Positions 7,712 to 56,852 of a DNA stretch of 64,000 nt are shown piece by piece (position 1 is the first letter of the stretch; every line of letters begins with the position of its first letter). Both the position numbers and the translations under genes were made by a program. The DNA is from Acidobacteriota bacterium (GTDB lineage Bacteria > Acidobacteriota > UBA890 > WLXD01): NCBI GenBank assembly GCA_963666055.2, contig CAXWPH010000015.1, positions 1,216,001-1,280,000 on the forward strand, given 5' to 3'. The notes under the pieces were generated by a model. It was given only the letters and a program-made list of their open reading frames with translations. It did not search any database and was not told where the DNA came from.

Positions 7712-9076
7712 ATGACCACCGAGACCGACAAGACCTGCTGCGGCCCAGGCTATGCGTCGCCCGCGGAGGCGATGAAGGCGCCGCGCGAGAAGCTCCTCTA
7801 CACCGTCGCGCTCTACATCGGCACGGGCATCCAAAAGCCAGACTATCTGGCCACCATCGACGCTGACCCGGAAAGCCCCACCTACAGCCAGGTTGTCAGC
7901 CGGCTCGAGATGCCCGGCATCGGCGACGAGTTGCATCACATGGGCTGGAACGCCTGCTCGTCTTGTCACCATGATGCGAGCAAGGAGCGACGCTATCTGA
8001 TCATGCCGGGAGTGCGCAGCTCCAACCTGCACATTGTCGACTGTGCGGCCGATCCCAGGAGCCCGCGCCTTCACAAGGTGATCGAGGGGGCCGAGATCAA
8101 GGCGAAGACCAATCTGTCGGCGCCGCATACGGTTCATTGCCTTGGCTCGGACATCATCATCTCGATGCTCGGCGATGCGAAGGGCGAGGCGCCCGGCGGA
8201 TTCCTGCATCTGAACGAAGATCTCGAGATCGTCGGGCGATGGGAGAACGACCTGGGCGGCATGAAGTTCAACTACGACTTCTGGTACCAGCCGCGCCACA
8301 ACGTCATGGTCTCGAGCGAATGGGCGGCGCCCAACACCTTCATGCCGGGCTTCGATCTGGAAGAGGTCGGGCTGCTCAAGTACGGCCGCGAGATCCACTT
8401 CTGGGATTTCGAGAACAGGAGAGTCGAGAACACGGTCTATCTGGGCGAGGACGGCCTGGTGCCGCTGGAGGTGCGTTTCCACCACAACCCGAGCTCGAGC
8501 CACGGCTTCGTCGGCGCGGCGCTTTCCTCCAACGTGATCCACTGGTTCAAGAAGGACGACGAGTGGATCGTCGAGAAGATCATCGACGTCGAGAACGAAC
8601 GCCATCCGGAGTGGCCCATCCCGGTACCCGGCCTGATCACCGTGATCCTGATCTCGATGGACGACCGGTTCCTCTATTTCTCCAACTGGCTGCATGGAGA
8701 CCTGCGCCAGTACGACATCTCCGATCCATCCAATCCAAAGCTCACCGGTCAGGTCTGGATGGGTGGCCTGCTTGGCAAGGCGCCGGAGGTAAACGGCCAC
8801 AAGATCACCGGCGGCCCGCAGATGCTCCAGCTGTCGCTCGACGGCAAGCGGCTTTATGTGACCACCTCGCTCTTCTCGACCTGGGACAATCAGTTCTACC
8901 CGGAGATTCGCGAGACGGGCGGCTGCATGCTGATGGTCGATTGCGACGCCGAGAACGGCGGCATGTCGATCAACGCCGGCTTCTTTGTCGACTTCGGCAA
9001 GGAGCCGCACGGCCCGGCGCGTTGCCATGAGACGCGTTATCCGGGCGGTGACTGCACCTCGGATATCTGGCTGTAG
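7712..9076 (+). CDS. Selenium-binding protein SBP56 / methanethiol oxidase family
   Basis: CCGPGYASP, DELHHMGWNACSSC, PHTVHC, YDFWYQPRHNVMVSSEW, GGPQMLQLSLDGKRLYVT, WDNQFYP and GGDCTSDIW. No signal peptide. Confidence 0.93.
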   Translation: MTTETDKTCCGPGYASPAEAMKAPREKLLYTVALYIGTGIQKPDYLATIDADPESPTYSQVVSRLEMPGIGDELHHMGWNACSSCHHDASKERRYLIMPGVRSSNLHIVDCAADPRSPRLHKVIEGAEIKAKTNLSAPHTVHCLGSDIIISMLGDAKGEAPGGFLHLNEDLEIVGRWENDLGGMKFNYDFWYQPRHNVMVSSEWAAPNTFMPGFDLEEVGLLKYGREIHFWDFENRRVENTVYLGEDGLVPLEVRFHHNPSSSHGFVGAALSSNVIHWFKKDDEWIVEKIIDVENERHPEWPIPVPGLITVILISMDDRFLYFSNWLHGDLRQYDISDPSNPKLTGQVWMGGLLGKAPEVNGHKITGGPQMLQLSLDGKRLYVTTSLFSTWDNQFYPEIRETGGCMLMVDCDAENGGMSINAGFFVDFGKEPHGPARCHETRYPGGDCTSDIWL

Positions 9077-9083
9077 TGTCGCC

Positions 9084-9527
9084 ATGACCAACCCGCAGGA
9101 CAACACCCCGAACGGCCCAGCGCCGACCCGCCCAGCGCCGACCCACACAGGGCGCTTCACCATCACGCTCGCCAATCAAGGGGGCAGTGCGTTCGAGGTC
9201 GACGCGGAGGCGCCGCTTCTCGAATCGCTCGAGCAGCATGGCGTTTCCCTGCCGTATGGCTGCCGCTACGGGGGCTGCATCTCCTGTTCGGCAAAGCTGC
9301 TGGTAGGCGAGGTCGACCAGAGTGAAGGTCGCGCGCTCAACGGCCGCCAGCTGGCGGACGGCTATGTGCTGTTGTGCGTGGCTCGTCCCGAAACCGATTG
9401 CACGCTCGACGTCGGCGTCGAGAGCCACGACAAGCTCTATCGCAACCCGTTCCAGAGTCCGCTCAGCCCGAATGAGCTGAAGCCCTCCCTTGTTGGCGAA
9501 CCGGGATCCCTGCAGGACGCACCATGA
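9084..9527 (+). CDS. Plant-type 2Fe-2S ferredoxin
   Basis: LPYGCRYGGCISC...VLLCVA cluster motif; starts 7 bp after the SBP56 stop. Confidence 0.9.
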   Translation: MTNPQDNTPNGPAPTRPAPTHTGRFTITLANQGGSAFEVDAEAPLLESLEQHGVSLPYGCRYGGCISCSAKLLVGEVDQSEGRALNGRQLADGYVLLCVARPETDCTLDVGVESHDKLYRNPFQSPLSPNELKPSLVGEPGSLQDAP

Positions 9528-12162: not shown

Positions 12163-12978
12163 GTGTCCAAAGAGAGTCTGAATGCCGTAGTGACCCAGAG
12201 GATCGAGATGTCACCCGAACTGGTTCTGCTCCGGGTGGCTCCGGATGGCTGGGAGTTGCCGTTGTTCGAGGCCGGACAGTTCGCTGTCCTTGGGTTGCCG
12301 GGGAAATCGGCACGCATCACCTGGTCGGATCCGGAAGAGGAGCCGCCTGAGCCAGAGCGGCTGATTCGTCGAGCCTATTCGATTGCTTCTTCATCGGCGT
12401 CGAGCGAGTACCTGGAGTTCTACATCATGATCGTCCGTTCTGGACGGTTGACTCCCAGGTTGTTTTCGCTGGAGCAAGGAGATCGCGTTTGGCTGGGGCA
12501 GAAAATTGCTGGGATGTTCACCTTGGAGGATGTGCCAGAAGACAAGGACATCGTGCTGGTCTCCACTGGGACGGGATTGGCACCCTATGTCAGCATGCTG
12601 CGTAGCCATCTGGTTTGTGGAAGCAAGCAGCGCTTCGCGGTGCTTCACGGAGCTCGACACTCTTGGGATCTGGGATACCGGGCAGAGCTCACCACCATGC
12701 ACCGGCTCTGCGACAACTTTGACTACTTCCCTTTGGTCAGTCGTCCGGCTGAAGAGCCGGTGCCGTGGCAGGGCGCCACCGGATACGTCCAGGACCTGTG
12801 GACCGGAGGGGTCCTTGAAGAGGCCTGGCACAGCCGGCCGACACCAGCGGACGCCCACGTGTTCCTCTGCGGAAACCCACGCATGTGCGAGCAAATGGTC
12901 ACACAGCTGGAAACAGAGGGATTTAGGGAACACACGCGTAAAGAGGCGGGCGAGATTCACGTCGAACGCTATTGGTAG
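12163..12978 (+). CDS. fpr: Ferredoxin-NADP+ reductase (bacterial type)
   Basis: RRAYSIAS, GRLTPRL, STGTGLAPYVSM, LCGNPRM and terminal ERYW; GAGGAG RBS. Confidence 0.88.
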   Translation: MSKESLNAVVTQRIEMSPELVLLRVAPDGWELPLFEAGQFAVLGLPGKSARITWSDPEEEPPEPERLIRRAYSIASSSASSEYLEFYIMIVRSGRLTPRLFSLEQGDRVWLGQKIAGMFTLEDVPEDKDIVLVSTGTGLAPYVSMLRSHLVCGSKQRFAVLHGARHSWDLGYRAELTTMHRLCDNFDYFPLVSRPAEEPVPWQGATGYVQDLWTGGVLEEAWHSRPTPADAHVFLCGNPRMCEQMVTQLETEGFREHTRKEAGEIHVERYW

Positions 12979-33235: not shown

Positions 33236-36200
33236 AGTTGGGGAGCCGGCAGTTGTGGGTCCACGCCCTTGCTGCGCTGCTGGTCAGCGGGTTCCCGGCA
33301 CTGGACCTTTACGGTTCGGTTGCTCCCCAGGAGACGGTTGCCGCGCAGGAGGGCGTCGTTGTTCCTGGCGGTAAAGAATTCGCCCGCTCGTATCTCGGCA
33401 TGGTGGAGGGGCGTAGCAAGGACTTTCTTCACGAGCTTGCCGAGTACCTCCAGGAACCCGGCATGCGCACGCGTGCCTTGCGTCTGGACAAGGCGATCGA
33501 CGAGCTCCTTGATTACGAGAAGCTGCAGCAACAGCTCCGTGGCAAGCACGGTGCGGAGCCGCCGAGCTTCGCGCACCCGGATGCTTCTGCCTATGCCAAG
33601 GCTCGCGACCTGGTTGGTTGGTTCGGTGTTCGGCCCGTCGAACTTGACGGCCCTCTGAGCCTGGAGCTGCGTGGCGGCGACTCACAGAAGCTCAGGCGCG
33701 AGGTATTTGCTCACCTCGGCTACGACATCCCCGAGCTGATCGCGCTCTGGGCGAGCGGTGAGCCCATCCACATGCCCGTGCCGAAAGAGACGGCTGCCGT
33801 GATGTTCGGTGGCGGCGCCTGGAAGCAGGAGGTCTTCGACAAGCAGTTCACGCCCACAGAATTGTTCCGCGAGTTCCTGCGCGACAACGAAGCGCGCTGG
33901 GTGATGCTCGGCTACGTACGACTCGACCCCGACACTCGCGATCTGTTGCGGGCGACGATGGGGCTGCGTGAGCCGTATCGGGACCGCCGCTTGAGCAGCG
34001 TGTTCGCCGAGCTGGCCCACTACCTCCGAAGTCATGACGGCGCGCTCGTGCTGCCGGGCGAATCGCGCCTCGCCTGGACGAAGATACTGGGCTCCTGGAA
34101 CTCGCCCTCGGATCTCGTGCGACGGCTCGTGGATCGCGACGACGGACGCGCACTCCACCTGTGGCGGGCGCTTTCCCTGGTGCCACCACGCCGGGCCCGC
34201 TTCCTGCTGACACACGGTGCCACCGACCGGGAGAGCATCGAGCGGTGGGCGAGCGATCTCTACGGCAGCATCCGCATCCCCGGTCGCCAGCAGGCGCTGC
34301 GCTGGCGGGGTGACCTGGCCGACCTGTTCCTGCAGCTGCGCCTCCGTCCCGACGGCGAAGGCATCAGCTGGCTCGGCGGCGGCAAGGCATGGATCGCGGC
34401 ACTCCGGAGCGACCGCGTGGTGAGTGACCGCGCCGCCCTGGACAAGGAGCTGCGCGACGAGCGGGTTCGAGAGGCGGCGGATCACGGTGCTGCCGTCGAT
34501 GCCGAGATCTTGCGACGACTCGTCCAGGGGTTCGAGGGCTCCGAGCTTCAGCAAGGTACCCACGCGATCGAGCGGTTTGTCGCCATTCAGGCGGCCTTTC
34601 GGTACCAGCCTGCGGCCGCCACGCCCAGGACGGTCACCCTGTTGTATCGAAACTACGATCGCTTGGCGCAAGCCTACGGGTTTCTTGTCGGCCCCACTCC
34701 CATCCATGCCGATAGCGTCGAACGCCTGATCTACTTTCTGGGGCGTGCGGCAAGCCCGCACGACGATAAGCAACGGGAAGCCGCGGCAAGGCAGGCGCAG
34801 GCGACGCTGCTCATCCTCAAACGACTCCTGGATAACGGCCGGGTGCCCGCGGAGCAACGCCACGAGGTGCTCGGGCAGCTTTTGGATCTGCCGCTCGATC
34901 AAGAAGCCGGAGGCTTCGGCCGCGGCCTCGCCGACTGGTGGCGGCAGACACTCCTCCCTGCCATCGGCCACCAGGGCAACTTCGCCGACGCCGAGAGCCT
35001 CAGCCAGAGTCTGGTCGCAGCCCTGGCGGACCGGGCACCGGCAGCTGAAGTGACGGTCGACGGCATCCAACTCCGCTTCTCCACCGGCGACATGTGGGTC
35101 TCACGCATTCATGACAGCCTCCAGATGCAGCGGTTGGCACCGTTCGGCCACGTACTCGAGCTCGATGCGATAGCCGCCGAATACGGGGACAAGTCGAGCG
35201 CCGAGCTGGGGCAGCTGGGCAACGAGATCGAGGCACGGGTACGTCCCGTCTGGAACGCGCTGCGGGATTCCGTCGCCACGGCGATCTATGAGGGCGACGG
35301 CGATGACGAGGTCCCTCTGCCGCTCAAGCGCCAGGATCTCCCGGACCAGGTGGGGCGCCTACTGCGCGATGCCGGCAGGAACGAGAACCGTCCCGAGGAC
35401 TTCGCGGACGTCCGCAAGCACCTCACGAGCTGGTTCACCGACTCCCTGGTGGCGGTTGCCTACGCGATTCATATCAACGATCCGAGGGGGCTCTACTTTG
35501 ACGATCGCCAGCCCGCCTGGCTGCATCGACTCGGTCCTCTCCAGGAGTCGCCTAGAGACACCGGGCCGTGGCTGCACACGCGGGAGGTGCGCGACCAAGC
35601 ATCAGGTCTGCAGCTGCAGAACAGCTTGCTGGGCGTACCCGGTCACCTTGGCCACTGGGCGCTGCGCATGCAGACACTGCAAAGCGGGGTCAGCTTCGCG
35701 GCGGGGTCGGCGGCGGAGTCATGGAGTGAAGCGGTGTTCGCCGTCCATCCCGCCGCGCTGAGTGCTCCGTCGCTGCAGGCTCTGACGGCACGGCTAGATC
35801 GCGCCGCCGAATGGGTGGAGGCCGCCGCGGCGGTCTCCGATCCGGCGCTCCCTGCACCCTGGCTCGAGTCGGCGCATGCCGTGTCCACGCTGGAGGGGAT
35901 GTTGAACCTGTTGCACCGTCCGGCGGACGCTTGGCGGTTGCGCCAGGACATCGCGGCGGGCGATGCCCAGTCTGCCTTGGAGCGCATGACGCCAGGCGAT
36001 CGCTACCTGCTCGTCTGGGGGGCGGAAGATCTCGCGCACGCGATCGATCCAGCGCCGCGCTGGGAAGCGGACAACCTGGTGGGATTACCCTACTGGCGCG
36101 GCGCCGGAACTCTCGGTCTGACCCACCCGAGCTTGGTCCCGAAAGGTGAAGCCGCCAATGCGGTCACCGATGGTCTGCTGTACGCGCGCGTGCTCGGGAT

Positions 36201-36435
36201 TCGAGTCGAGCTGGCGCGGGGCCTCGCCGAAAATGGCTACCCCGCCGCTCTGGCAGCGCCATTGCTACTTCCTGCCATGGGCGCGGCGCTCCAGGCCATC
36301 GATCCGGACACTGCAACCGTCTGGGACGAGATCGCCATCGCGGTGCCCAATGTGGTGACTCCCGAAGCGGTTCGCAACTGGGTTCTGGAGCTCGCCTTCA
36401 ACGAAGACCTCACACCCGCGAGGATACCCTTCTAG
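33232..36435 (+). CDS. Large exported hypothetical protein (~1067 aa, helical)
   Basis: GTGA overlap with the VWA gene, signal-like N-terminus, long open frame; no motif recognised. Confidence 0.75.
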   Translation: MKLGSRQLWVHALAALLVSGFPALDLYGSVAPQETVAAQEGVVVPGGKEFARSYLGMVEGRSKDFLHELAEYLQEPGMRTRALRLDKAIDELLDYEKLQQQLRGKHGAEPPSFAHPDASAYAKARDLVGWFGVRPVELDGPLSLELRGGDSQKLRREVFAHLGYDIPELIALWASGEPIHMPVPKETAAVMFGGGAWKQEVFDKQFTPTELFREFLRDNEARWVMLGYVRLDPDTRDLLRATMGLREPYRDRRLSSVFAELAHYLRSHDGALVLPGESRLAWTKILGSWNSPSDLVRRLVDRDDGRALHLWRALSLVPPRRARFLLTHGATDRESIERWASDLYGSIRIPGRQQALRWRGDLADLFLQLRLRPDGEGISWLGGGKAWIAALRSDRVVSDRAALDKELRDERVREAADHGAAVDAEILRRLVQGFEGSELQQGTHAIERFVAIQAAFRYQPAAATPRTVTLLYRNYDRLAQAYGFLVGPTPIHADSVERLIYFLGRAASPHDDKQREAAARQAQATLLILKRLLDNGRVPAEQRHEVLGQLLDLPLDQEAGGFGRGLADWWRQTLLPAIGHQGNFADAESLSQSLVAALADRAPAAEVTVDGIQLRFSTGDMWVSRIHDSLQMQRLAPFGHVLELDAIAAEYGDKSSAELGQLGNEIEARVRPVWNALRDSVATAIYEGDGDDEVPLPLKRQDLPDQVGRLLRDAGRNENRPEDFADVRKHLTSWFTDSLVAVAYAIHINDPRGLYFDDRQPAWLHRLGPLQESPRDTGPWLHTREVRDQASGLQLQNSLLGVPGHLGHWALRMQTLQSGVSFAAGSAAESWSEAVFAVHPAALSAPSLQALTARLDRAAEWVEAAAAVSDPALPAPWLESAHAVSTLEGMLNLLHRPADAWRLRQDIAAGDAQSALERMTPGDRYLLVWGAEDLAHAIDPAPRWEADNLVGLPYWRGAGTLGLTHPSLVPKGEAANAVTDGLLYARVLGIRVELARGLAENGYPAALAAPLLLPAMGAALQAIDPDTATVWDEIAIAVPNVVTPEAVRNWVLELAFNEDLTPARIPF

Positions 36436-36457
36436 CATGTCCTCCACGGCCTGCTAG
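36432..36457. mobile_element. Collapsed MITE footprint between convergent stop codons
   Basis: CTAGCA-TGTCCT-CCACGGCCTGCTAG. The last 14 nt equal the right end of copies 2 and 3, and each CTAG supplies the TAG stop of one flanking gene. Confidence 0.6.
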
Positions 36458-38463
36458 TGATCCGGTTGGGCTAGTCCGGTAGGTAGCGCCACGGCGGCGA
36501 GCGAACCGGAGTGGGCCGGCCCGCCTATGGGCAGCACGATGTACTGCCTGCCCTCGTGCATGTAAGTCATCGGCGCGCTGTTGCTCTGCGCCGGGATATC
36601 CACCGTGCCGAGTCGCTCGCCGGTGAGCTTGTCGACCGCGTGCAACAGTGGAGCGCCGCGGCGGCCCTCGGCGTAGATGAGCAGTGTCTTGGTAATCACC
36701 TTGGTGGCGTGCGACGGCTTGCCGGTGTTGGGGATATCGAGGCCTTGCAGTGCCGGGTGATGGATAATCGACTCGGGTGTGTCGCCGTTGGGGATCCACC
36801 ACAGATGCTCGCCGGTGTTCAGATCGATCGCCGTGATACGACCGTAGGGCGGCTTGAGGTAGGGCAGTCCCTGGACCCGGCCAGGCCCGACGCTCGGTCC
36901 GCTCGCCCACGCCATGACTGTCTTGCCGATCGGGTTGGGATCGTTGGCATCTGCCTCGATGCCGGGGATCAGCGATTGCCCGGAGCAGGTCTTGGTAGAC
37001 GCGACGTAGAGGATCTGGGTCTGCGGGTCGACCGCTGCTCCTCCGGGGATGTTGGTGCCGCCGCCCCCACCGGGGCAGATCAATGAGGTCTTGAAGCCCA
37101 GGTTGTTGTCGCGGTGTAGCGGTGGGTTGAAGAGCGGGCCGAGCTGGAATTCGCTGAGCATCTCTACCGCCGCCTGCCGGAGCTCTGGCGTGAAGTCGAT
37201 CAGGTCGTCCTCGGTGACGCCCTGCATCTCGTACGCTGCCGGCCTCGTCGGGAACGGTTGCGTCGGCGATGTTTGCTCCCCGGGGATCTTCGACGACGGA
37301 ACCGGGCGCTCCTCGATCGGCCATACCGGCTCGCCGGTCTCACGGTTGAGCACGTAGGCGAAGCTCTGCTTGGTCGTCTGTACCAACGCCGGGATCTTCT
37401 TGCCGTCGACGGTGATGTCGACGAGGTTCGGCGCGGTGGGGTTGTCGTAGTTCCAGATGTCGTGATGCACGGTCTGGAAGTGCCAGCGGCGCTCACCCGT
37501 CTTGATGTCGACGGCGATGATGGAGGTGGCGAAGAGGTTGTCGCCGGGAGAGAAGCCGCCCCAGTAGTCGTTAGTCGGCGGATCGGTGACGAAGTAGACC
37601 AGCCCGAGCTCCGGGTCAGCGGCCATCGGTGCCCATGCCGAGACGTTGCCGGTGTACGACCAGGCATCGCTTTCCCAGGTGTCGTGGCCGAACTCGCCGG
37701 GCTGCGGGATAACGTTGAACTTCCACAGGTGATCGCCAGAACGCGCGTCGTACGCCAGCACGTGCCCGGGCACGTTCTCGCGTCGGGTCTGCCGGTAACC
37801 CTGCTCGTGCGAGTTGCCCACCACCACCACGTCGTTGACCACCATCGGCGGCGAGGAGTTGGTGATGTAGCCGGTTTCCGTGGGAAGCCCCTCGTAGGCG
37901 TCGTACTCGTAGCCGAGGTCGGCCAGCAGATCTACGGTGCCCTCGTTGCCGAACTGCTCGATTGGCTTTCCGGTGACGGCGTCGAGCGCGTGCAGGAAGA
38001 AGCCCGGCGAGATCATGTAGATCACACCGCGGCGGTCGATGTTGGCGTACCCGACGCCCTTGCCATAGTTCTTCCGCATCGAGTCTTCCCAGCGCGGCGT
38101 GTAGGGCTCGCGGTAGGTCCACAACGTCTCGCCGGTGGCCGGATCGATAGCGACGACCGTGCGCCGCTGACCGGCGACGGTGTACAGCACCCCGTTCGCG
38201 TAGGTCGGCGTGGAGCGCATGATGTTGTCCACCGAGGGGCCGTAGTTGTCGCCCCGCCACACCCAGGCGACCTCGAGATCCTCGAAGTTGTCGGCGTTGA
38301 TCTGGTCGAGCGGCGAGTAGCGTGTGCTGAAGGTATCGCCGCCCCAGTGGCGCCATTCGCCGTTCTCGGTACCAGTGCTCGATCCGCCGTTCTGACCGAC
38401 CGCAGGCATCGACATCAAGCACAGGGTGAGCGCAATCGCGGCGCCCATCGCAGGTTTCGTCAT
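36454..38463 (-). CDS. Exported PQQ-dependent dehydrogenase (glucose/quinate DH-like, no multi-TM anchor)
   Basis: RYSPLDQIN, WAPMAADPELG, WHFQTVHHDIWNYD, PPYGRITAIDL and PMTYMHEGRQY; AGGAGG RBS. Confidence 0.9.
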   Translation of the reverse strand: MTKPAMGAAIALTLCLMSMPAVGQNGGSSTGTENGEWRHWGGDTFSTRYSPLDQINADNFEDLEVAWVWRGDNYGPSVDNIMRSTPTYANGVLYTVAGQRRTVVAIDPATGETLWTYREPYTPRWEDSMRKNYGKGVGYANIDRRGVIYMISPGFFLHALDAVTGKPIEQFGNEGTVDLLADLGYEYDAYEGLPTETGYITNSSPPMVVNDVVVVGNSHEQGYRQTRRENVPGHVLAYDARSGDHLWKFNVIPQPGEFGHDTWESDAWSYTGNVSAWAPMAADPELGLVYFVTDPPTNDYWGGFSPGDNLFATSIIAVDIKTGERRWHFQTVHHDIWNYDNPTAPNLVDITVDGKKIPALVQTTKQSFAYVLNRETGEPVWPIEERPVPSSKIPGEQTSPTQPFPTRPAAYEMQGVTEDDLIDFTPELRQAAVEMLSEFQLGPLFNPPLHRDNNLGFKTSLICPGGGGGTNIPGGAAVDPQTQILYVASTKTCSGQSLIPGIEADANDPNPIGKTVMAWASGPSVGPGRVQGLPYLKPPYGRITAIDLNTGEHLWWIPNGDTPESIIHHPALQGLDIPNTGKPSHATKVITKTLLIYAEGRRGAPLLHAVDKLTGERLGTVDIPAQSNSAPMTYMHEGRQYIVLPIGGPAHSGSLAAVALPTGLAQPDH

Positions 38464-39344
38464 CGCATTCCACCTCCTGAAACGGACACCGGCACGTACC
38501 CATTCGTCCAGCAACATTGATCACCTGAACTGCTGTCGTTGGCAGCCCAGTTGTCCACCCGGACGCGAAGCACATAGTCGCCGGCTTCGCTGAACGTCGC
38601 GGTTGTAATCGCTTCGCCTATGCCCTCCTCCAACACGATCTCGCGATCCTCGAACACCACCGCGCCGGGGGGGCCTTGATGTTTGAACCAGGTCAGCTTC
38701 ACCGCGACACCATCCCTGTTCGCGGTGTCGTGGTCAAACCGTTCCGAGATCTCGCTAGCCCATACCGTCAGCGCTAGCGGGCTTCCCACCGTCGCGACCC
38801 GTGGCTGGTTCAGCCTGACACCCGTAGGGTGCTGGCCCTCCATCCCGTTGGGCTCAAGCCTCAATAGAGGTGGTACGGACCCCATACCCCGCGGTCCGTA
38901 GTCGAGCTGAAGGGCGTCGATTCCCACCCTTGCCGGCACCGAATAGGTCACGCCGTTGGCACGGATGGTCCACACAACTCGCCGCTCTCCATCTCCATAC
39001 GACGCTGGCACCGTCACCGTGAAAACACCCCTGTCTCGGCGTGGATCGACCGGGAAGTGCGTCGGCTGCTCACCATTGAACACGGCTGGTTCGACGAAGT
39101 TATCCGGCCCGATGGGAATCTCGAGTATCTCCTCCAAATTCAAGTTGAAGTACCCGAACGAGAACGTGTAGGTGCCGTCTGAGTTCGCGTACCAGCCTTC
39201 AAAGAACGGAGCTACCGGTTCGCCTGCTGGTGGTCGCGGCGCCAGCGGAAGCCGCTGCACCTGCTGTGCCCCGACAGGTGCCGAGCTCATGATGGCGGCG
39301 ATCAGCGCCAAGCAAGGACTGACCCGGAGCAGGCGGCCCTTCAT
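38460..39344 (-). CDS. Exported protein with a C-terminal PKD/Ig-like domain and a CC motif
   Basis: Signal peptide, PFFEGWYAN..FGYFNLN, TATFSEAGDYVLR and DQCCWTN; ATGA overlaps on both sides. Confidence 0.8.
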   Translation of the reverse strand: MKGRLLRVSPCLALIAAIMSSAPVGAQQVQRLPLAPRPPAGEPVAPFFEGWYANSDGTYTFSFGYFNLNLEEILEIPIGPDNFVEPAVFNGEQPTHFPVDPRRDRGVFTVTVPASYGDGERRVVWTIRANGVTYSVPARVGIDALQLDYGPRGMGSVPPLLRLEPNGMEGQHPTGVRLNQPRVATVGSPLALTVWASEISERFDHDTANRDGVAVKLTWFKHQGPPGAVVFEDREIVLEEGIGEAITTATFSEAGDYVLRVRVDNWAANDSSSGDQCCWTNGYVPVSVSGGGMR

Positions 39345-40696
39345 CTCTGAGCTGCCACCTCTGCGTTTGCTTTCCTGTTGGCAACCTGTTGCTCGTAGCC
39401 CGCCTCGTCCAAGTGGGTTACCGCAAGCCAGGCGTGCGACATCTCGTCCATCGTACGGGCGCCTCGCGCATACCAGATTTCTGGATCGGGATTCAGCGGG
39501 TTGTTCTCCGTGTTGTCGTACCACGCGGTGATAACCAAGACGGTACCCGTGGGCAACAGCGGAGCCGCGTCGTCCTCATAGATATAACTGTGGTGCCATC
39601 TGGCGTTGAAGTTGGTCACCATGCTCAAGAGTTCCTGCGAGCCATCCGGATAGATCGCCCGCATGGATTTCGCATGAAGATGCACATGCCCGTGGGGCTG
39701 GAAGCTGTCGATGCGGACCGGATGATCCCAACGGTGGAAGCCCTGGGTCATCGCGGTTCCACCGGGTGCCAGGGCAATATCACCGTCCAGACGGTACATC
39801 GCCAGGTCTTGTGTGAACTCCGGCTCGTAGTCCTCGGGATATAACCAGAGGCCAAGCTCGATCTGATCGTCCTCGACGACATAGCCCATCGGGTAGTAAT
39901 GCACGTCCCATTCGATTAGCGCGTTCACCGGCAGCAAACGGGCTGCGTCTGACGGGATGATCTCGCCGATCTTGCCCATGGCATATTCCGAGAGCATCGC
40001 CGTCCGGACCCATTCACCATCCTCGTCCTGGGTCATTAATCTAGGGATGGCGTGGTGCACGACTTGACGGCCGGCGGGGAAGGAAGGCCGTATTTCGAAG
40101 GCCCGAATCAGCCTGTCCGCGTTGAGCCCCGTCTCCACTCTCGGACGCCACCAGATGTCGCCTCCCTCGGCCGGCACCGTATAGGGTCTCGACTCGATGA
40201 CGTGATCCGGCTCGCCCAGCTGGTCTTCGAGCTGCCACTTGTTGCCCTCCGGCCATTCCACCGGGGGCGGCATATCCGCCACGTCCCCCCTCGGCGTGCC
40301 GCTATCCACCCATGCGACGATGGTCTGGATCTGTTGCTCACTCAGCCTCCAGTCGTTCTTGATTGCCTGGATCCCGACACGTGTATCGAGGTGATACGGA
40401 GGCATTTCCCTGGCGGCCACCTGATCCTTGATCCGTGTTGCATAGCGTTTAGCCTGAGCATAGGTAAGAAGAGACATCGGCCCGACTGAGCCCGGCCGAT
40501 GGCAGATCTGACAGTTCTCCTGCAGAATCGGCGCCACGTCCCGAGTAAACGAGACAGCGTTTCCCTCGCCCGACACTGACTCATCGGACTGCTGCATCGA
40601 GAAAGCGTCGCCGCGGAAAGTCAGTAGGAAGAGGAGCGCTAACAGACAGGTCCCCAATAGCCCTGGATGCCTTGCGCGTGCCGATTTGTTGCCCAT
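39341..40696 (-). CDS. Exported heme-c / copper type II (PHM/DBH-like) monooxygenase
   Basis: CQICH plus MPP (heme c); VVHHA and DVHY (CuH site); PHGH and DEM (CuM site). Confidence 0.85.
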   Translation of the reverse strand: MGNKSARARHPGLLGTCLLALLFLLTFRGDAFSMQQSDESVSGEGNAVSFTRDVAPILQENCQICHRPGSVGPMSLLTYAQAKRYATRIKDQVAAREMPPYHLDTRVGIQAIKNDWRLSEQQIQTIVAWVDSGTPRGDVADMPPPVEWPEGNKWQLEDQLGEPDHVIESRPYTVPAEGGDIWWRPRVETGLNADRLIRAFEIRPSFPAGRQVVHHAIPRLMTQDEDGEWVRTAMLSEYAMGKIGEIIPSDAARLLPVNALIEWDVHYYPMGYVVEDDQIELGLWLYPEDYEPEFTQDLAMYRLDGDIALAPGGTAMTQGFHRWDHPVRIDSFQPHGHVHLHAKSMRAIYPDGSQELLSMVTNFNARWHHSYIYEDDAAPLLPTGTVLVITAWYDNTENNPLNPDPEIWYARGARTMDEMSHAWLAVTHLDEAGYEQQVANRKANAEVAAQR

Positions 40697-40872
40697 GATG
40701 CGCCCTCCTGACAGAAAAGACTGGCGTCGCATTTTGGCCGCCCACGTGAAGCAGGCTAGATGTCGATCATCGCGACCGTCAAGGGACGTTGTAAAATCGC
40801 CGGGGTCGTGATACCGCTCGTTGTGGCAAATGGAAGGAACTGCAGTTTCAGGCTCGACGGATGGAGGGTGGC

Positions 40873-42420
40873 ATGAGCAAGCGAGACACGGGCGAAACAA
40901 ACGGTGCGGAGACCAAACTGAGTCGCCGGACCTTCGCAAAGACCTCGGTCGCCGCGGGTACCGCGGCTGTTGCCCTGCCTAACACGTTGCTCAGCGCGAC
41001 CCCGGCCAAGACCGCCGCGACGAAGGCAACCTACGGTCGCGCCGTCCGTGTCGAGATGCGGGACGAAGGCTTTGGATACGGCGGTAGGGGTGCGCCTCCC
41101 TTGACCGCCCCGGTCCCCCGCACCGCCAGCGTCAACGGCTGGAAAGAGGGCACCACGATTCCCGCCGAGTACTACTTGGACGCAAAGCACTTCGCCGCCG
41201 ACGAGGCGTTCGTGGCGGAGAACTTCTGGCAGTACACCGATCAGGCGAGCCGTATTCCGAATCCCGGCGATTTCTACGTGTTCGAGTTCGGGCGCTCCGA
41301 ATCTATTCTGATCGTCCGCGGACAGGACAACGAGATAAGAGGCTTCTACAACGTCTGCCGCCACCGTGGCTCGCGACTGTGCCGCCACGACGCGGATGCC
41401 AAACCGAGCGACCCGCGCCTGTCGGTCAAGCAACTTGGTCAGAGCGGTAGCTCACCGGTGTTCCGCTGCCCATACCACGCCTGGACGTACGACACCGAGG
41501 GCAGCCTCATCTACGCCTACGGCATGCAGGACGATTTCGACCCGGCGGACAACGGCCTGATTCCCTGCCACTTGCGGGTCGCCGAAGGCCAGGTTTTCGT
41601 CAATCTCTCGAAGTCGGACACGCCGCCGGACTTCGAGTCGGTTGCGAGCCGACTTGGTGCTCTGGCCGACAAGTGGAGCCTGAAGGATCTGAAGGTCGTG
41701 GCCCGTGAGTACTACCCGATCAACGCCAACTGGAAGCTGGCGCTGGAGAACTTCAAGGAGTGCTACCACTGCGGGGCAGCGCATCGACCGCTGGTAACGA
41801 CCCACAACTGGGACAACGACGTCACCGACGAGCAGAGGGCCGAAAGGGCCGCTGCGGTTGCCGCGTGGGTTCCAGAGAAGAACCGGCGGCGGCGGCAGCA
41901 GCCCGCATCAACCGGCATGGGTGGCGAAGGCATGGACGGCGAAGGCATGGACGGCGAAGGCATGGACGACACTCCCGCCTACGGGAGCATGGGCGGGTTG
42001 CTCAATCCCGGCTTCGTCACCGGGTCGATCGATGGCAAGCCCGTGTCGATACTGTTGCCCAACATCACGGAGTGGAACCATGAGACCGGCGGCACCACGA
42101 CATTCGAGTCGACGGGCTACTGGCAAACCTACGACGATCACGTTGCGGTAGCACGGTTCACGCCGCGATCGGAGAAGTTCACCGATTGCGAGATCGTCTG
42201 GTTAGTGCATCCCGATGCCGTCGAGGGTCGCGACTACGATCCCGACAACGTGAAGGCGCTGTGGCACGTCACCATCCAGGAGGACATCTGGATCACCGAC
42301 AACAATCACGCGGGCATCGAGTCTAGCGCCTACGCCGCTGGGCGCTACTCCACCCACGAGGGCGGCCCCTCCCGCTTCATCGACTGGTACATGAAGGAGG
42401 TCGTCAAGGTCGGGGACTAA
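40873..42420 (+). CDS. Rieske non-heme iron oxygenase alpha subunit (GbcA/Stc2-like) with a twin-arginine leader
   Basis: LSRRTFAK plus an Ala-rich h-region; NVCRHRG, CPYHAW, ENFKECYHCGAAH and TIQED. Confidence 0.9.
   Translation: MSKRDTGETNGAETKLSRRTFAKTSVAAGTAAVALPNTLLSATPAKTAATKATYGRAVRVEMRDEGFGYGGRGAPPLTAPVPRTASVNGWKEGTTIPAEYYLDAKHFAADEAFVAENFWQYTDQASRIPNPGDFYVFEFGRSESILIVRGQDNEIRGFYNVCRHRGSRLCRHDADAKPSDPRLSVKQLGQSGSSPVFRCPYHAWTYDTEGSLIYAYGMQDDFDPADNGLIPCHLRVAEGQVFVNLSKSDTPPDFESVASRLGALADKWSLKDLKVVAREYYPINANWKLALENFKECYHCGAAHRPLVTTHNWDNDVTDEQRAERAAAVAAWVPEKNRRRRQQPASTGMGGEGMDGEGMDGEGMDDTPAYGSMGGLLNPGFVTGSIDGKPVSILLPNITEWNHETGGTTTFESTGYWQTYDDHVAVARFTPRSEKFTDCEIVWLVHPDAVEGRDYDPDNVKALWHVTIQEDIWITDNNHAGIESSAYAAGRYSTHEGGPSRFIDWYMKEVVKVGD
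41923..41967 (+). repeat. 15-bp in-frame tandem repeat x3 (GEGMD)
   Basis: GGCGAAGGCATGGAC, three exact copies. Confidence 0.95.
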
Positions 42421-42472
42421 GGCGCGCCGAGCCCCCCTGGGTACGACTTAGAGCTCGAGACGGAGGAGTGTC

Positions 42473-43714
42473 GTGAGGCCAATCACGCGGGCGATCGCGA
42501 TTCTGCTGGTGCTGGCGTTGTCGGTTGCCTGTACGCCACAGCCGGCCTCCGAGCCCGCCGAAGCCACTGCGGAGCCGGGCTCCGACCAAGCCGAGCCAGC
42601 GGAAGGCGAGGAGCAGGGCGAGCCGGAAGTGGATCCTGAGCTGGCCATCATTCGGCTGGACCCGAACGACGAGAACCTCGAGGTGTGGAGAGATCGAGAC
42701 ATCTCGGACGATCCACCACGAGAGCCCGGACCGGTTGGAATCGGGGCGGCCCTGAGCTTCTTCCGGCTGCCCATCGCGGTGACCGTCGAGGACCTGATCG
42801 CTGGCGAAGTGGAGGTGGCGTTTATCGGAGCCCCGGTCGACATGGGGGTCGGCTATCGAGGCGCTGGCGAGGGACCCACCGCGATGCGCGCGCTCCGGCG
42901 CGGCGTCGGCAGCATGGAGACGATGATCAGCTGGAAGGAGGAGCTGAAGGCCGTGGACTACGGCAACGCGCCCATCGACAATCTGAGCGTCGAGCGCAGC
43001 ATGCCACCGATTCGGCGGATGGTTCGGGAGATCGCCGAGACGGGGGCGATTCCCATCATCATCGGCGGCGATCACTCCATCGAGTTCGCCAACGTTGCCG
43101 GGCTCGCCGACGTGTACGGCAAGGAGAACGTCGGCGTCATCCACTTCGATGCTCACTACGACGCCGGCGGCACGCGCAGCGGCCACCTGATCTCCCATGC
43201 CCAGCCGGTACGTCGGCTCGTCGACGACGGACACGTCCTCGGCCGGAACTTCATCCAGGTGGGCCTTCGGGGCGCCTGGCCGGGGGAGGCCGGATTCGAG
43301 TGGATGCGGGCCAACAACCTTCGCTACCACACGATGGCGGAGATCAATCGCGATGGTTGGGGGGCCGTCATGGAACGGGTTCTCGACGAGGCGAACGACG
43401 GGCCGGAGTACCTCCACATCTCCTTTGACATCGACGTCATGGACCCGGCGTACACCGAGGGAACAGGTACGCCGGTGCCGGGCGGCCTGATGCCCCGCGA
43501 GGTGTTCCCCCTCATCCGCGGCCTCTGCGCCGAGAACAACGTCGTTGGATTCGACCTGGTCGAGTTGAACCCTCTCCTCGACCCCGGCTACACGACCGTG
43601 CTCAACTCCAAACAAGTTGTCGACGAGTGCCTGACCGGGATTGCGATGAAGAAGCTAGGGCTCAGCGGCAGGGACTACCTGAGCCCGCTCACGGCGACCG
43701 ACGGCCGGCGGTAG
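42473..43714 (+). CDS. Lipoprotein ureohydrolase (agmatinase family)
   Basis: Lipobox LSVAC; GGDHS, HFDAHYD, HLISH and SFDIDVMDP..GTGTP. Confidence 0.9.
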   Translation: MRPITRAIAILLVLALSVACTPQPASEPAEATAEPGSDQAEPAEGEEQGEPEVDPELAIIRLDPNDENLEVWRDRDISDDPPREPGPVGIGAALSFFRLPIAVTVEDLIAGEVEVAFIGAPVDMGVGYRGAGEGPTAMRALRRGVGSMETMISWKEELKAVDYGNAPIDNLSVERSMPPIRRMVREIAETGAIPIIIGGDHSIEFANVAGLADVYGKENVGVIHFDAHYDAGGTRSGHLISHAQPVRRLVDDGHVLGRNFIQVGLRGAWPGEAGFEWMRANNLRYHTMAEINRDGWGAVMERVLDEANDGPEYLHISFDIDVMDPAYTEGTGTPVPGGLMPREVFPLIRGLCAENNVVGFDLVELNPLLDPGYTTVLNSKQVVDECLTGIAMKKLGLSGRDYLSPLTATDGRR

Positions 43715-43794
43715 CAGGCCGAGTCGCGGGCCCGTCGCGAATGAGTGAGACGAGGTCGGAACCCTCGTCAGTTACTGACCCAGTGAGGCTCCAA

Positions 43795-45534
43795 ATGCAC
43801 CCGCAACGTGCCCTCATTTTTTCACTGACTCTGCTCACGACCCTCGTCTCTGTCGCCTGCAGCGATCCCGCCGATGAGACGACCCCCGCCACTCACGCGG
43901 ATTTGGTTGTCGTCAATGCCGACGTTCGTACCGTTGACCCAGCCATTCTTGCGGCAGAAGCGTTTGCCGTCGGAGATGGCCGGATTATCGCTATTGGCTC
44001 GACCGTCGAGATCGCTGCGCTCGCTGGCGACACAACCACGGTCGTCGACGCGGCTGGCTCAACGGTAATACCGGGTCTTGTCGACGGACATACTCACCTT
44101 GTTGGCGGCGCCGGGCTGGCCGTCGGTGTTGATCTGTCCGAAATAGAAGACAAGAGCGAATGGCTGCGCATCATTCGGGACAAAGCCCAAACTCTGCCCG
44201 ATGGCGCGTGGATCCTGGGCGGCGCCTGGGACCACAATCTCTCCGACGGTGTGTTGCCGACAAAGGAGATGCTCGACTCCGTCGCCCCCGACAACCCGGT
44301 GCTTCTCTGGGACATTGATCATCATTCGAGCTGGGCCAATAGCCTCGCCATAGAACTCGCCGGCGTGACGGCCGACAGCCCCGTGCCGACGGGCGGTCAA
44401 ATACTGGTCGACTCGACCACCGGTGAGCCCACCGGAGTGTTTCTCGAAACTGCAGCGGCGCTGTTCGACGATGCACCGGGCCTACAGGAAGCAGCGGACC
44501 CCGAAGCCGGAATCAGGGCGGCTGTGGCGCTTGCGAACAGCTATGGGATTACTAGCGTGCACGACATGAGCGGCAACCATGACGCGTTCCTGTCGGTCAT
44601 GAAGGATGGGGCTCTGACGGTACGAATCTGGCAGGGAGCGTTCTCAAACAATGCGAGCGCCGAGTCAGCCGTACAGTTTTTCCGCGATCTAGACGTCGAG
44701 AGAAGCCGGCTGCGGGAGACGATCGCGGAGTTCACTGGAACGAAGACAACCGGGCCGCTATTCGAGCTCGGCTATGTGAAACTGATGATCGATGGTGTTC
44801 TTTCTACGCACACCGCGTTGATGAAAGAACCGTACGCCGACAACCCGGAGGCGCAGGTCGAGCCATTCGTCAGTCGCCAGGATCTGGACACTATGGTGGC
44901 AGCGGCACACGACGCTGGCTTTCCGGTAGCAGTGCACGCCATAGGTGATGAGGGGGTGTCCTGGGTGCTGGATTCGTTCGCCGCGTCGCCGAGGCCGCCC
45001 GGTGTGCCGATAGATCGCGTCGAACACATAGAGGTCGTCACTCCTGATGATGTGCAGCGATTCAGCTCACTCGGTATAGCGGCCTCCATGCAGCCGCATC
45101 ACGCCACCTGCTGCGTCGGTAGCTACGTGGTCGATCGCATCGGCCCAGATCGCCTGCCGAATGCATATGTGTGGCGGCAAATGCTGGACAACAACATTCC
45201 CCTGGTGCTTGGGTCCGACTGGCCGACTTCTCCATTGAGTCCGCTGATCCAGATCGCCGATACGCTACACCGTGAAACCCAGATCGATGGTGCCGTTCGA
45301 CCGTGGGATGAGGGCAATAGGCTGACGTTTGAGGAAGCGCTGCACGGTTACACCCAAGCCGGCGCGAACATGACGGCCTGGGGCGATGAAATCGGCAGCA
45401 TTACCGTTGGCAAGTGGGCCGATTTCGTCATTCTCGATGAGTTGCTATCCGCTGAGGCCGACCGCAGCATCGAGAATCGCCGGGTGACGGCAACCTACCT
45501 CGCCGGCCGGCAGGTCTATCCGAGAGACCCATAG
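43795..45534 (+). CDS. Lipoprotein amidohydrolase 3 (YtcJ/NfdA-like)
   Basis: Lipobox VSVAC; DGHTH, KLMIDG, HAIGD, RVEHIE and GSDWP. Confidence 0.88.
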   Translation: MHPQRALIFSLTLLTTLVSVACSDPADETTPATHADLVVVNADVRTVDPAILAAEAFAVGDGRIIAIGSTVEIAALAGDTTTVVDAAGSTVIPGLVDGHTHLVGGAGLAVGVDLSEIEDKSEWLRIIRDKAQTLPDGAWILGGAWDHNLSDGVLPTKEMLDSVAPDNPVLLWDIDHHSSWANSLAIELAGVTADSPVPTGGQILVDSTTGEPTGVFLETAAALFDDAPGLQEAADPEAGIRAAVALANSYGITSVHDMSGNHDAFLSVMKDGALTVRIWQGAFSNNASAESAVQFFRDLDVERSRLRETIAEFTGTKTTGPLFELGYVKLMIDGVLSTHTALMKEPYADNPEAQVEPFVSRQDLDTMVAAAHDAGFPVAVHAIGDEGVSWVLDSFAASPRPPGVPIDRVEHIEVVTPDDVQRFSSLGIAASMQPHHATCCVGSYVVDRIGPDRLPNAYVWRQMLDNNIPLVLGSDWPTSPLSPLIQIADTLHRETQIDGAVRPWDEGNRLTFEEALHGYTQAGANMTAWGDEIGSITVGKWADFVILDELLSAEADRSIENRRVTATYLAGRQVYPRDP

Positions 45535-45551
45535 CATCAGTACGAACGGGG

Positions 45552-45715
45552 CTAGAGGCCGTGGTGAAAGTGTGGTGGGTCTGGCGACAGGGTCTTGCGA
45601 AGTGCAGGCAAGGAGAGAGGAGGAGGCGATGGATACCCCATCGTTGACGAGGAACGACGCAGGATACGCGCGCCACCCCCTGTCGCCCCACCACACTTTC
45701 ACCACGGCCTGCTAG
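45552..45715. mobile_element. 164-bp single-arm MITE, copy 3
   Basis: Same IR as copy 2 with CTAG ends. The interior is the reverse complement of arm B of copy 2; arm A is deleted. Confidence 0.88.
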
Positions 45716-56618: not shown

Positions 56619-56852
56619 GTGTTCGTTGTCTGGCTCGTGCACCCGGACGCTCGCGAGGGCATCGACTTCGATCCCGACAACGTCAAGGCGCTCTGGCACG
56701 TGACGATCCAGGAGGACATCTGGATCACCGAAAACAACCACGCCGGCATCGAGTCCGGCGCCTACACAGCAGGTCGATACTCCAGCCACGAGGGCGGCTG
56801 CTCCGGTTTCATCAGCCGGTACATGAAGGAGATCGTCACGGCTGGGGACTAA
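56619..56852 (+). pseudogene. C-terminal fragment of a paralog of the 40873 Rieske oxygenase
   Basis: VWLVHPDAREGIDFDPDNVKALWHVTIQEDIWITENNHAGIES..YMKEIVTAGD is nearly identical to the last ~75 aa of 40873-42420. Confidence 0.9.

Follow-up and report, generated by a model that had tools for sequence, protein, structure and literature searches.

The window analysed here, a 64-kb stretch of contig CAXWPH010000015.1 from an Acidobacteriota bacterium (source genome G000), contains two divergent arms of three genes each at positions 36454-45534. The reverse strand carries the genes for a pyrroloquinoline quinone (PQQ)-fold protein, a PKD-like protein and a heme c/copper (heme c/Cu) monooxygenase, and the forward strand those for a Rieske oxygenase with a twin-arginine translocation (Tat) leader, a ureohydrolase and an amidohydrolase. 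An earlier interpretation made from the letters alone (the sequence-only reading) had combined all six into one system for amine catabolism outside the cytoplasm. The genes are real, but the six-gene cluster is the wrong unit. With a probability of about 0.55, which applies jointly to the whole explanation given here, the six genes are a local, lineage-specific pile-up of two separate oxygenase modules and two lipoprotein hydrolases and not one conserved system, and the periplasmic reaction of the Tat-Rieske oxygenase would be the N-dealkylation of a betaine or another methylated amine, for which a Tat amine dehydrogenase with flavin and heme b, encoded separately, would deliver the electrons directly or via a small cytochrome c. 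Both oxygenases likely draw their electrons from extracytoplasmic heme proteins and not from NADH. Two unstudied oxygenase variants with export signals are present, and the Rieske clade, with its apparent heme wiring, is the less expected of the two.

For the comparison within the genus, the three congener loci with an orthologous trio of PQQ, PKD-like and heme c/Cu genes were used (G002, G003 and G004); G001 has no such trio. The trio is intact in all three loci, and all six genes occur together in none of them (0/3). In G002, the closest congener (92-97% identity), the ureohydrolase and PQQ genes are located tail to tail and the best Rieske match (87%) lies at a distance of about 420 kb. Two or three genes part the arms in G003 and G004, among them those for a CocE-type hydrolase and an M24 peptidase, each with a Tat leader. 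The blocks of homologous DNA found by blastn against these loci end at 40786/40787, within the divergent intergenic region between the arms (40697..40872), in all three congeners. The amidohydrolase has its sole orthologue among the congeners in G001 (81%), in a different context.

The same separation was found in a sample of 401 genomes of the phylum, for which three to six candidates were scored per genome. Tat-Rieske genes were detected in 8 genomes and the PKD-like gene in 30; 6 genomes, all within the source bacterial family, have the exported ureohydrolase. Tat-Rieske and PKD-like genes share a genome only in the five genomes of the source genus; none of the 396 other sampled genomes contains both halves, and in the three Tat-Rieske genomes outside the genus no heme/Cu homologue was found (0/3). 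Likewise, neither a Tat-Rieske nor a ureohydrolase gene could be detected in the 20 fetched regions around heme/Cu-PKD loci, which were taken from 20 of the 25 other genomes having the PKD-like gene. A conserved six-gene system was rejected on the basis of the congener loci, the DNA breaks, the 401-genome sample, the 20 heme/Cu-PKD loci and the narrow range of the ureohydrolase. The two halves, which the sequence-only reading expected to meet again elsewhere, largely fail to do so, with one metagenome contig (L056, discussed below) as the exception. At 56619-56852 the window also contains an isolated 3′ part of a Tat-Rieske gene, which shares 96.6% identity with a copy on contig C7 and lies beside a broken sulfatase-like open reading frame (ORF), which is a sign of recent shuffling.

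The Rieske oxygenase alpha subunit gene (40873..42420, forward strand; Pfam Rieske and Ring_hydroxyl_A) encodes a protein with the cluster motif CRH-x34-CPYH, the iron motif ECYHCGAAH and a QED motif. The Rieske motif, invariant in the alignment, lies within the range C-x-H-x(15-47)-C-x2-H given for Rieske oxygenases in a review (PMC12445004, section 7). The mononuclear iron site, of the 2-His-1-carboxylate type with a bridging acidic residue (E296-C-Y-H299...H304 and D471, aligned to 3n0q and 4qup), is invariant in 33 rows. The AlphaFold2 (AF2) model (pLDDT 89.6) has the two-domain oxygenase fold, and Foldseek assigned it to 3n0q (E 4e-35, TM 0.79) and Stc2 (TM 0.76-0.77, 29% identity). The best NCBIfam match is GbcA (NF058607) with 229 bits against a cut-off of 670, so the protein does not qualify as a GbcA equivalog. 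Carnitine catabolic genes 3 kb from one metagenome Tat-Rieske copy (L061) and a homocysteine-methyltransferase-like gene after the G258 operon (L155) are hints of a betaine-type substrate, and together with the closest structures, 3n0q and Stc2, they support the amine/betaine-type substrate class that had been proposed for this enzyme.

The leader of the Rieske protein contains the motif SRRTFAK, and the features of a Tat substrate are present with this motif, a cofactor-containing mature domain and TatC in G000, which also encodes cytochrome c assembly genes. Among the 120 best homologues, 111 have RR-x-F/L in the first 60 residues according to a regular expression, one of these matches being spurious, and the remaining nine start inside or after the leader; [STND]-RR-x-F is retained across about 50% identity. 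In a tree of 104 rows, the 41 Tat rows group with two short-start rows on a single branch (SH-aLRT 100, without bootstrap), so that the Tat leader noticed in the window proved to be conserved clade-wide. The same clade is distinguished by a Rieske spacer of 34-44 residues, compared with 17-19 in 61 of the 63 untagged rows. This spacer is modelled as a loop (pLDDT 75-85) and could be a new docking surface or a tuner of the cluster potential. In total, 16 Tat-Rieske copies were found in G000, the congeners have similar numbers of Rieske matches, and the members of the corresponding Atlas protein cluster are mostly from Acidobacteriota. Partial extra tatA/tatC copies occur in G000 at C2:401688-402416 and C15:1363372-1363689 beside SpdH-like genes, Tat-Rieske genes and insertion sequence (IS) remnants; these are probably duplication debris.

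The electron supply was analyzed via the gene neighbourhood. Outside G000, 13 Tat-Rieske loci were available, comprising 10 of 79 metagenome loci (from a scan of 5 of 64 parts; locus L060 is almost without flank) and those of G258, G061 and G345, and the other 69 of these metagenome loci, which belong to non-Tat Rieske relatives, served as controls. A small CxxCH cytochrome c gene is located within 130 bp in 9 of the 13 Tat loci and in none of the controls, and in several pairs the start and stop codons of the two genes overlap. A gene for a protein like the spermidine dehydrogenase SpdH lies within 3 kb in 4 of the 13 Tat loci, again compared with 0/69, and one or the other neighbour is present in 11/13. 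A GbcB-type reductase gene was found at 0/13 Tat loci and 8/69 controls. An operon in G258 (C182) combines all partners, with an SpdH-like gene, two Rieske genes and a cytochrome c gene. Two of the metagenome loci, L052 and L057, group with the G000 copies and are not independent counts. In G000 itself, an SpdH-like gene adjoins 7 of the 16 Tat-Rieske copies and is at most three genes away from 10, for which random draws gave means of 0.2 and 0.6 and maxima of 2 and 3, respectively. The heme/Cu gene adjoins a single copy (1/16), the one in the window, and the PQQ gene adjoins none (0/16).

The genome of G000 encodes 30 full-length SpdH-like Tat flavoproteins, each heme-His motif being present in 29 of them; the match to Pseudomonas aeruginosa SpdH reaches E 1e-122 and both heme b histidines are retained. 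A GbcB-type reductase could not be found in G000, where PF00970 had no match (a distant GR-type reductase was not searched for), and of two PF00175 matches one belongs to a pyrimidine operon and one is FNR-like. The statement that the six genes include no reductase or transporter is correct; as evidence by itself the missing reductase is weak, since 61 of the 69 controls lack an adjacent GbcB-type reductase too. The PQQ protein was rejected as donor of the Rieske oxygenase on account of the 0/16 adjacency and the neighbour counts at the Tat loci. From these neighbourhoods, the cytochrome c and the SpdH-like protein, not the neighbouring PQQ protein, are likely to supply the Rieske electrons. 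The expectation that heme proteins accompany both oxygenases holds; beside the Rieske genes these are encoded by the cytochrome c (9/13) and SpdH-like (4/13) genes. Elsewhere in the window, an SBP56 (methanethiol-oxidase-like) gene is followed by a 2Fe-2S ferredoxin gene (7712-9527).

According to the proposed mechanism, the Rieske protein would receive its cluster in the cytoplasm and then leave it in the folded state via Tat. The SpdH-like enzymes would oxidise polyamines or other amines, and the electrons would move within them from FAD to heme b and on to the Rieske cluster or the cytochrome c; for SpdH, electron transfer from FAD to a surface heme b is described in PMC12564564. The mononuclear iron would then activate O2 and hydroxylate the N-alkyl group, with release of an aldehyde. 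In the other module, the heme c-PHM protein and its PKD-like partner likely use their own heme in place of the ascorbate of peptidylglycine alpha-hydroxylating monooxygenase (PHM). This heme would be filled from the periplasmic cytochrome c pool, to which PQQ-fold dehydrogenases may contribute.

The heme c/Cu gene (39341..40696, reverse strand), for which Pfam gave only a weak Cytochrome_CBB3 match under the cut-off, encodes a protein with a Sec-type leader and an N-terminal cytochrome c (CQICH) fused to a copper monooxygenase of the fold found in PHM and dopamine beta-hydroxylase (DBH). All 71 rows of the family alignment retain His214/215/266 and His335/337/Met419 as well as CxxCH and a downstream Met; Met98 is likely the axial heme ligand. 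We take the invariant HH, H, HxH and M to correspond to the CuH (His, His, His) and CuM (His, His, Met) ligands of PHM. At sequence level, one weak cytochrome match was obtained against the PDB and no Pfam copper monooxygenase model scored above threshold, and a fold search was required to see PHM. The AF2 model (pLDDT 90.9, 71 sequences) matches PHM 1sdw with a Foldseek E of 4e-13 and a VIA Z of 19.1 (rmsd 3.1, 246 aligned) and DBH with Z 16.2, the next unrelated structure reaching Z 7.8. This bears out the copper monooxygenase of the sequence-only reading, with a fold of the PHM type. Residues 9-99 match the monoheme cytochrome 4rlr with a middling Z of 7.1.

The PKD-like gene (38460..39344, reverse strand; weak Pfam PKD match under the cut-off) is the constant neighbour of the heme/Cu gene. 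Both adjoin in 6/6 G000 copies (one truncated) and in 20/20 regions from other genomes, and a vicinal QCCWTN motif is retained in 20 of 21 aligned PKD-like rows. Judged from this linkage, the PKD-like protein is likely a second subunit or accessory of the copper monooxygenase. The PQQ-fold gene is less tightly linked: it adjoins 2 of the 6 pairs in G000 and 4 of the 20 outside loci, being within the fetched region in 6. The most complete form of this module is a run of cytochrome c, PQQ-fold, PKD-like and heme/Cu genes in L048 (G000 C6:423353-429670, where a second heme/Cu gene lies divergent to the run) and in L217 (G001), in which the PQQ protein retains W-D; the same cytochrome c family adjoins PQQ-fold genes and Tat-Rieske genes. 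The earlier idea that a dehydrogenase powers the oxygenases through heme c fits the copper enzyme, where the run in G000 and G001 lends it the strongest support and a heme-to-copper electron supply is a reasonable inference.

Other neighbours of heme/Cu genes were observed as well. At L213:6888-7895 (G000 C12) a secreted NHL-repeat gene and a cytochrome c gene are located beside a heme/Cu-PKD pair, and the NHL-repeat protein could be a PAL-like lyase, PAL being the lyase partner of PHM in peptide amidation. Such a gene follows this one G000 pair and none was found in 38 scanned of 68 listed neighbours elsewhere. In L203 and L206 more distant heme/Cu homologues adjoin redoxin genes, which suggests thiol-based donors in other heme/Cu subfamilies.

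The PQQ-fold gene (36454..38463, reverse strand; Pfam PF01011, E 2e-181) encodes an eight-bladed, mGDH-like protein with a leader and without membrane anchor or heme. Alignment to 1yiq and 1kv9 places Asn (HHDIWNYD) at the position of the Asp of W-D in quinohemoprotein alcohol dehydrogenase (ADH), which we take to be the catalytic base, and Arg at the position of the PQQ-binding Glu. W-N is common to the window protein, its C7 paralogue, L188 and L197 (4 of 25 aligned). The search for cofactor synthesis genes did not detect pqqE in three genus genomes (positive in G127) or pqqC in five genomes, where the positive control was silent too; the single PF03070 match reads as TenA. PQQ may be taken up instead.

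In the right arm, the ureohydrolase gene (42473..43714, forward strand; Pfam Arginase, E 9e-72) encodes an arginase fold with intact metal motifs (GGDH, DAHYD and SFDIDVMD) and scores under the NCBIfam cut-offs for agmatinase, arginase and HutG. The amidohydrolase gene (43795..45534, forward strand; Pfam Amidohydro_3, E 7e-92), whose product carries the metal motifs HTH, Lys, HAIG, EH and GSD, is a local addition to the cluster, its orthologue being elsewhere or missing in the congeners. With this displacement and the restriction of the ureohydrolase to one family (6/401), the assignment of the hydrolases to a common pathway is not supported; both probably belong to one exported repertoire for scavenging amines and amides and are not fixed pathway steps.

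The six ORFs with export-type leaders are present as first described, and the identities of their products are supported; NCBIfam and Pfam point to the same families, with no score reaching an NCBIfam cut-off. The genes of the left arm are coupled by ATGA overlaps at 38460-38463 and 39341-39344; in the right arm the intergenic gaps are 52 nt (Rieske-ureohydrolase) and 80 nt (ureohydrolase-amidohydrolase). Leaders were judged by eye and by the hydropathy of the sequence. They are of the Sec type in the trio, and a lipobox-like SVAC is present in both hydrolases (Cys20 and Cys22). A crude export filter, which overlooked 2 of the 6 cluster genes, flagged 24% of the 3814 called G000 genes of at least 150 aa and seven other runs of at least six genes. 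That all six products carry export-type leaders stands as far as these can be read from the sequence, and it is less distinctive in a genome where exported proteins are common. Furthermore, paralogues abound in G000 for five of the six families, with 23 PQQ, 11 heme-Cu, 21 Rieske, 11 ureohydrolase and 32 amidohydrolase ORF matches, fragments among them; PKD has 6.

A scan for promoter- and terminator-like sites yielded 1 and 3 sites compared with shuffle means of 1.6 and 4.8 and was uninformative. No cassette-type repeats were found at gene boundaries within the cluster. The sole element is a miniature inverted-repeat transposable element (MITE)-like sequence after the cluster (45556-45710, about 160 nt, perfect 24-nt terminal inverted repeats), which has 114 genome matches of at least 110 nt and occurs once in G002 too. 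Next to the left arm, a secreted protein of about 1060 aa without Pfam match is encoded at 33253-36435, downstream of a VWA gene, and a second, truncated copy of this block is located on C5.

Several observations weigh against the explanation of two separate modules, and part of them favour other readings. In the single pathway of the sequence-only reading, electrons would pass in the periplasm from the PQQ protein to the heme c of the copper enzyme and on to the Rieske oxygenase, and the hydrolases would finish the products. In line with this, G003 and G004 resemble G000 in having the trio, the Rieske gene and the ureohydrolase gene within about 15 kb, the Rieske-ureohydrolase pair forms a single DNA block in G004, the trio and the ureohydrolase gene are adjacent in G002, and one cytochrome c family is located beside both PQQ-fold and Tat-Rieske genes. 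In addition, metagenome contig L056 joins two heme/Cu genes and a PKD gene with three Tat-Rieske genes at a distance of 1.3 kb. This pathway is nevertheless very unlikely and the least probable of the readings considered, given the six genes together in 0/3 congener loci, no genome with both halves outside the genus (401 sampled), 20/20 heme/Cu-PKD loci without a nearby Tat-Rieske or ureohydrolase gene, the 0/16 adjacency of the PQQ gene, the Asn at the catalytic position and the pqqC and pqqE genes not found (with the pqqC control silent). Moreover, electron flow from PQQ or heme c to an oxygenase-type Rieske cluster would be uphill by the potentials usual for these centres.

Thermodynamics is also the weak step of the mechanism preferred here. 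The small cytochrome c appears to be His/Met-ligated, and such hemes usually have a far more positive potential than oxygenase Rieske clusters, for which reason the transfer from cytochrome c to the Rieske cluster would be uphill. The Tat-Rieske motif moreover lacks the Ser and the disulfide described for high-potential Rieske proteins in the review (PMC12445004, section 7). The neighbourhood data are likewise limited in that most of the cytochrome c loci fall into one subclade, so that the 9/13 are not independent cases, the 16 G000 copies include 3 identical ones, an SpdH-like gene is missing from G061 and G345 with their Tat-Rieske and cytochrome c genes, 31 of the 37 genomes with SpdH-like genes lack Tat-Rieske, and the Rieske gene of the window has neither neighbour beside it. 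A reversed flow, in which the Tat-Rieske enzyme oxidises the amine at its iron and the electrons leave via the Rieske cluster and cytochrome c to the respiratory chain, would need no reductant and would be downhill from a low-potential Rieske cluster to a His/Met cytochrome c. It agrees with cytochrome c as the tightest partner (9/13 loci, several start/stop overlaps), with the missing reductase at the Tat loci and with SpdH-like neighbours that themselves release electrons as amine dehydrogenases. The intact oxygenase iron motif and fold argue against it, it is difficult to see how an N-methyl C-H bond of a betaine would be cleaved without activated O2, and we know of no Rieske oxygenase that works as an O2-independent dehydrogenase; reversed flow is therefore considered improbable, if less so than the other alternatives. 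A lower probability still is assigned to a location on the cytoplasmic side, where the leader would be a membrane tether or unused for export and a general ferredoxin or reductase encoded elsewhere would serve the oxygenase. In its favour, the leader has a weakly hydrophobic core (mean hydropathy mostly 0.5-1.2), the window also encodes an FNR-type protein (12163-12978) and a 2Fe-2S protein (9084-9527), and most control Rieske loci likewise have no adjacent reductase. Against this stand the retention of [STND]-RR-x-F across about 50% identity, the presence of TatC and cytochrome c assembly genes, and neighbours that are secreted c-type cytochromes and Tat flavoproteins, of which none was found beside the 69 non-Tat controls.

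In the literature searched, which leaves most subscription journals outside its coverage, no description of a Tat-exported or periplasmic Rieske oxygenase and none of a bacterial PHM-like/cytochrome c fusion was found. No link between SpdH and an oxygenase turned up there, and the habitat literature did not mention spermidine dehydrogenase among the matches listed. The accessible part of bioRxiv 10.64898/2026.07.10.737718 contains nothing on these proteins. Rieske oxygenases are described as being fed by flavin reductases and ferredoxins, and the word "periplasm" is absent from the part of the review that was available (PMC12445004). Tentatively, and with less assurance than the two-module explanation itself, it may be proposed that a whole Rieske clade moved to the periplasm and exchanged its NAD(P)H reductase for wiring through heme, with a cytochrome c of its own and a flavin/heme b dehydrogenase of the SpdH type, and that in this genus it operates beside heme-fused PHM-type enzymes in one NADH-free network, the oxygenation of amines being powered by their dehydrogenation. 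If true, an exported Rieske clade wired to cytochrome c or a flavo-heme dehydrogenase would represent a new way of supplying such enzymes with electrons, and a cheap amine or an electrode could take the place of NADH in driving Rieske catalysis. For electron delivery to the two coppers of PHM and DBH, the heme-fused PHM-type enzyme would offer a self-contained bacterial model. The genes to co-express are named by this analysis.

Compared with known systems, the Rieske protein resembles Stc2 (3VCA, 4QUP/4QUR), the uncharacterised 3N0Q, GbcA and CntA in its whole fold and in the ligands of the Rieske cluster and the mononuclear iron. It differs from Stc2, GbcA and CntA in the Tat leader of its clade, the spacer of 34-44 residues and the cytochrome c and SpdH-like neighbours, and in contrast to the GbcAB and CntAB systems with their NAD(P)H flavin reductase partner, which in canonical Rieske systems may be joined by a ferredoxin, the Tat loci have no GbcB-type reductase beside them (0/13). 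The heme c/Cu protein shares the two-domain copper fold and the HH..H / HxH..M pattern with PHM (1SDW) and DBH (4ZEL), but it is bacterial, has 12-14% identity to them, is fused to an N-terminal cytochrome c and has a constant PKD-like partner. The SpdH-like proteins match SpdH of Pseudomonas aeruginosa (7D9F-7D9J) over the whole length, including the twin-arginine N-terminus and the equivalents of His54 and His562, the ligands according to PMC12564564; unlike that enzyme, they occur as 30 full-length paralogues in G000 and are tied to Rieske genes, outside the window cluster. The PQQ protein has the eight-bladed propeller of PQQ glucose dehydrogenase, quinoprotein ADH and the TIGR04528 acido-empty quinoproteins, and its best NCBIfam match is TIGR03074 (355 bits, under all three cut-offs). 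It differs from classical PQQ dehydrogenases in being soluble, in WN for WD and R for E in E-x-T-P, and in that pqq synthesis genes were not found. Cellobiose dehydrogenase or PQQ pyranose dehydrogenase couples to lytic polysaccharide monooxygenase (LPMO), with electrons passing from a secreted dehydrogenase via heme to a copper monooxygenase. The copper module would follow the same logic with unrelated folds, its heme being fused to the monooxygenase and its link to the dehydrogenase being loose (6/20 loci).

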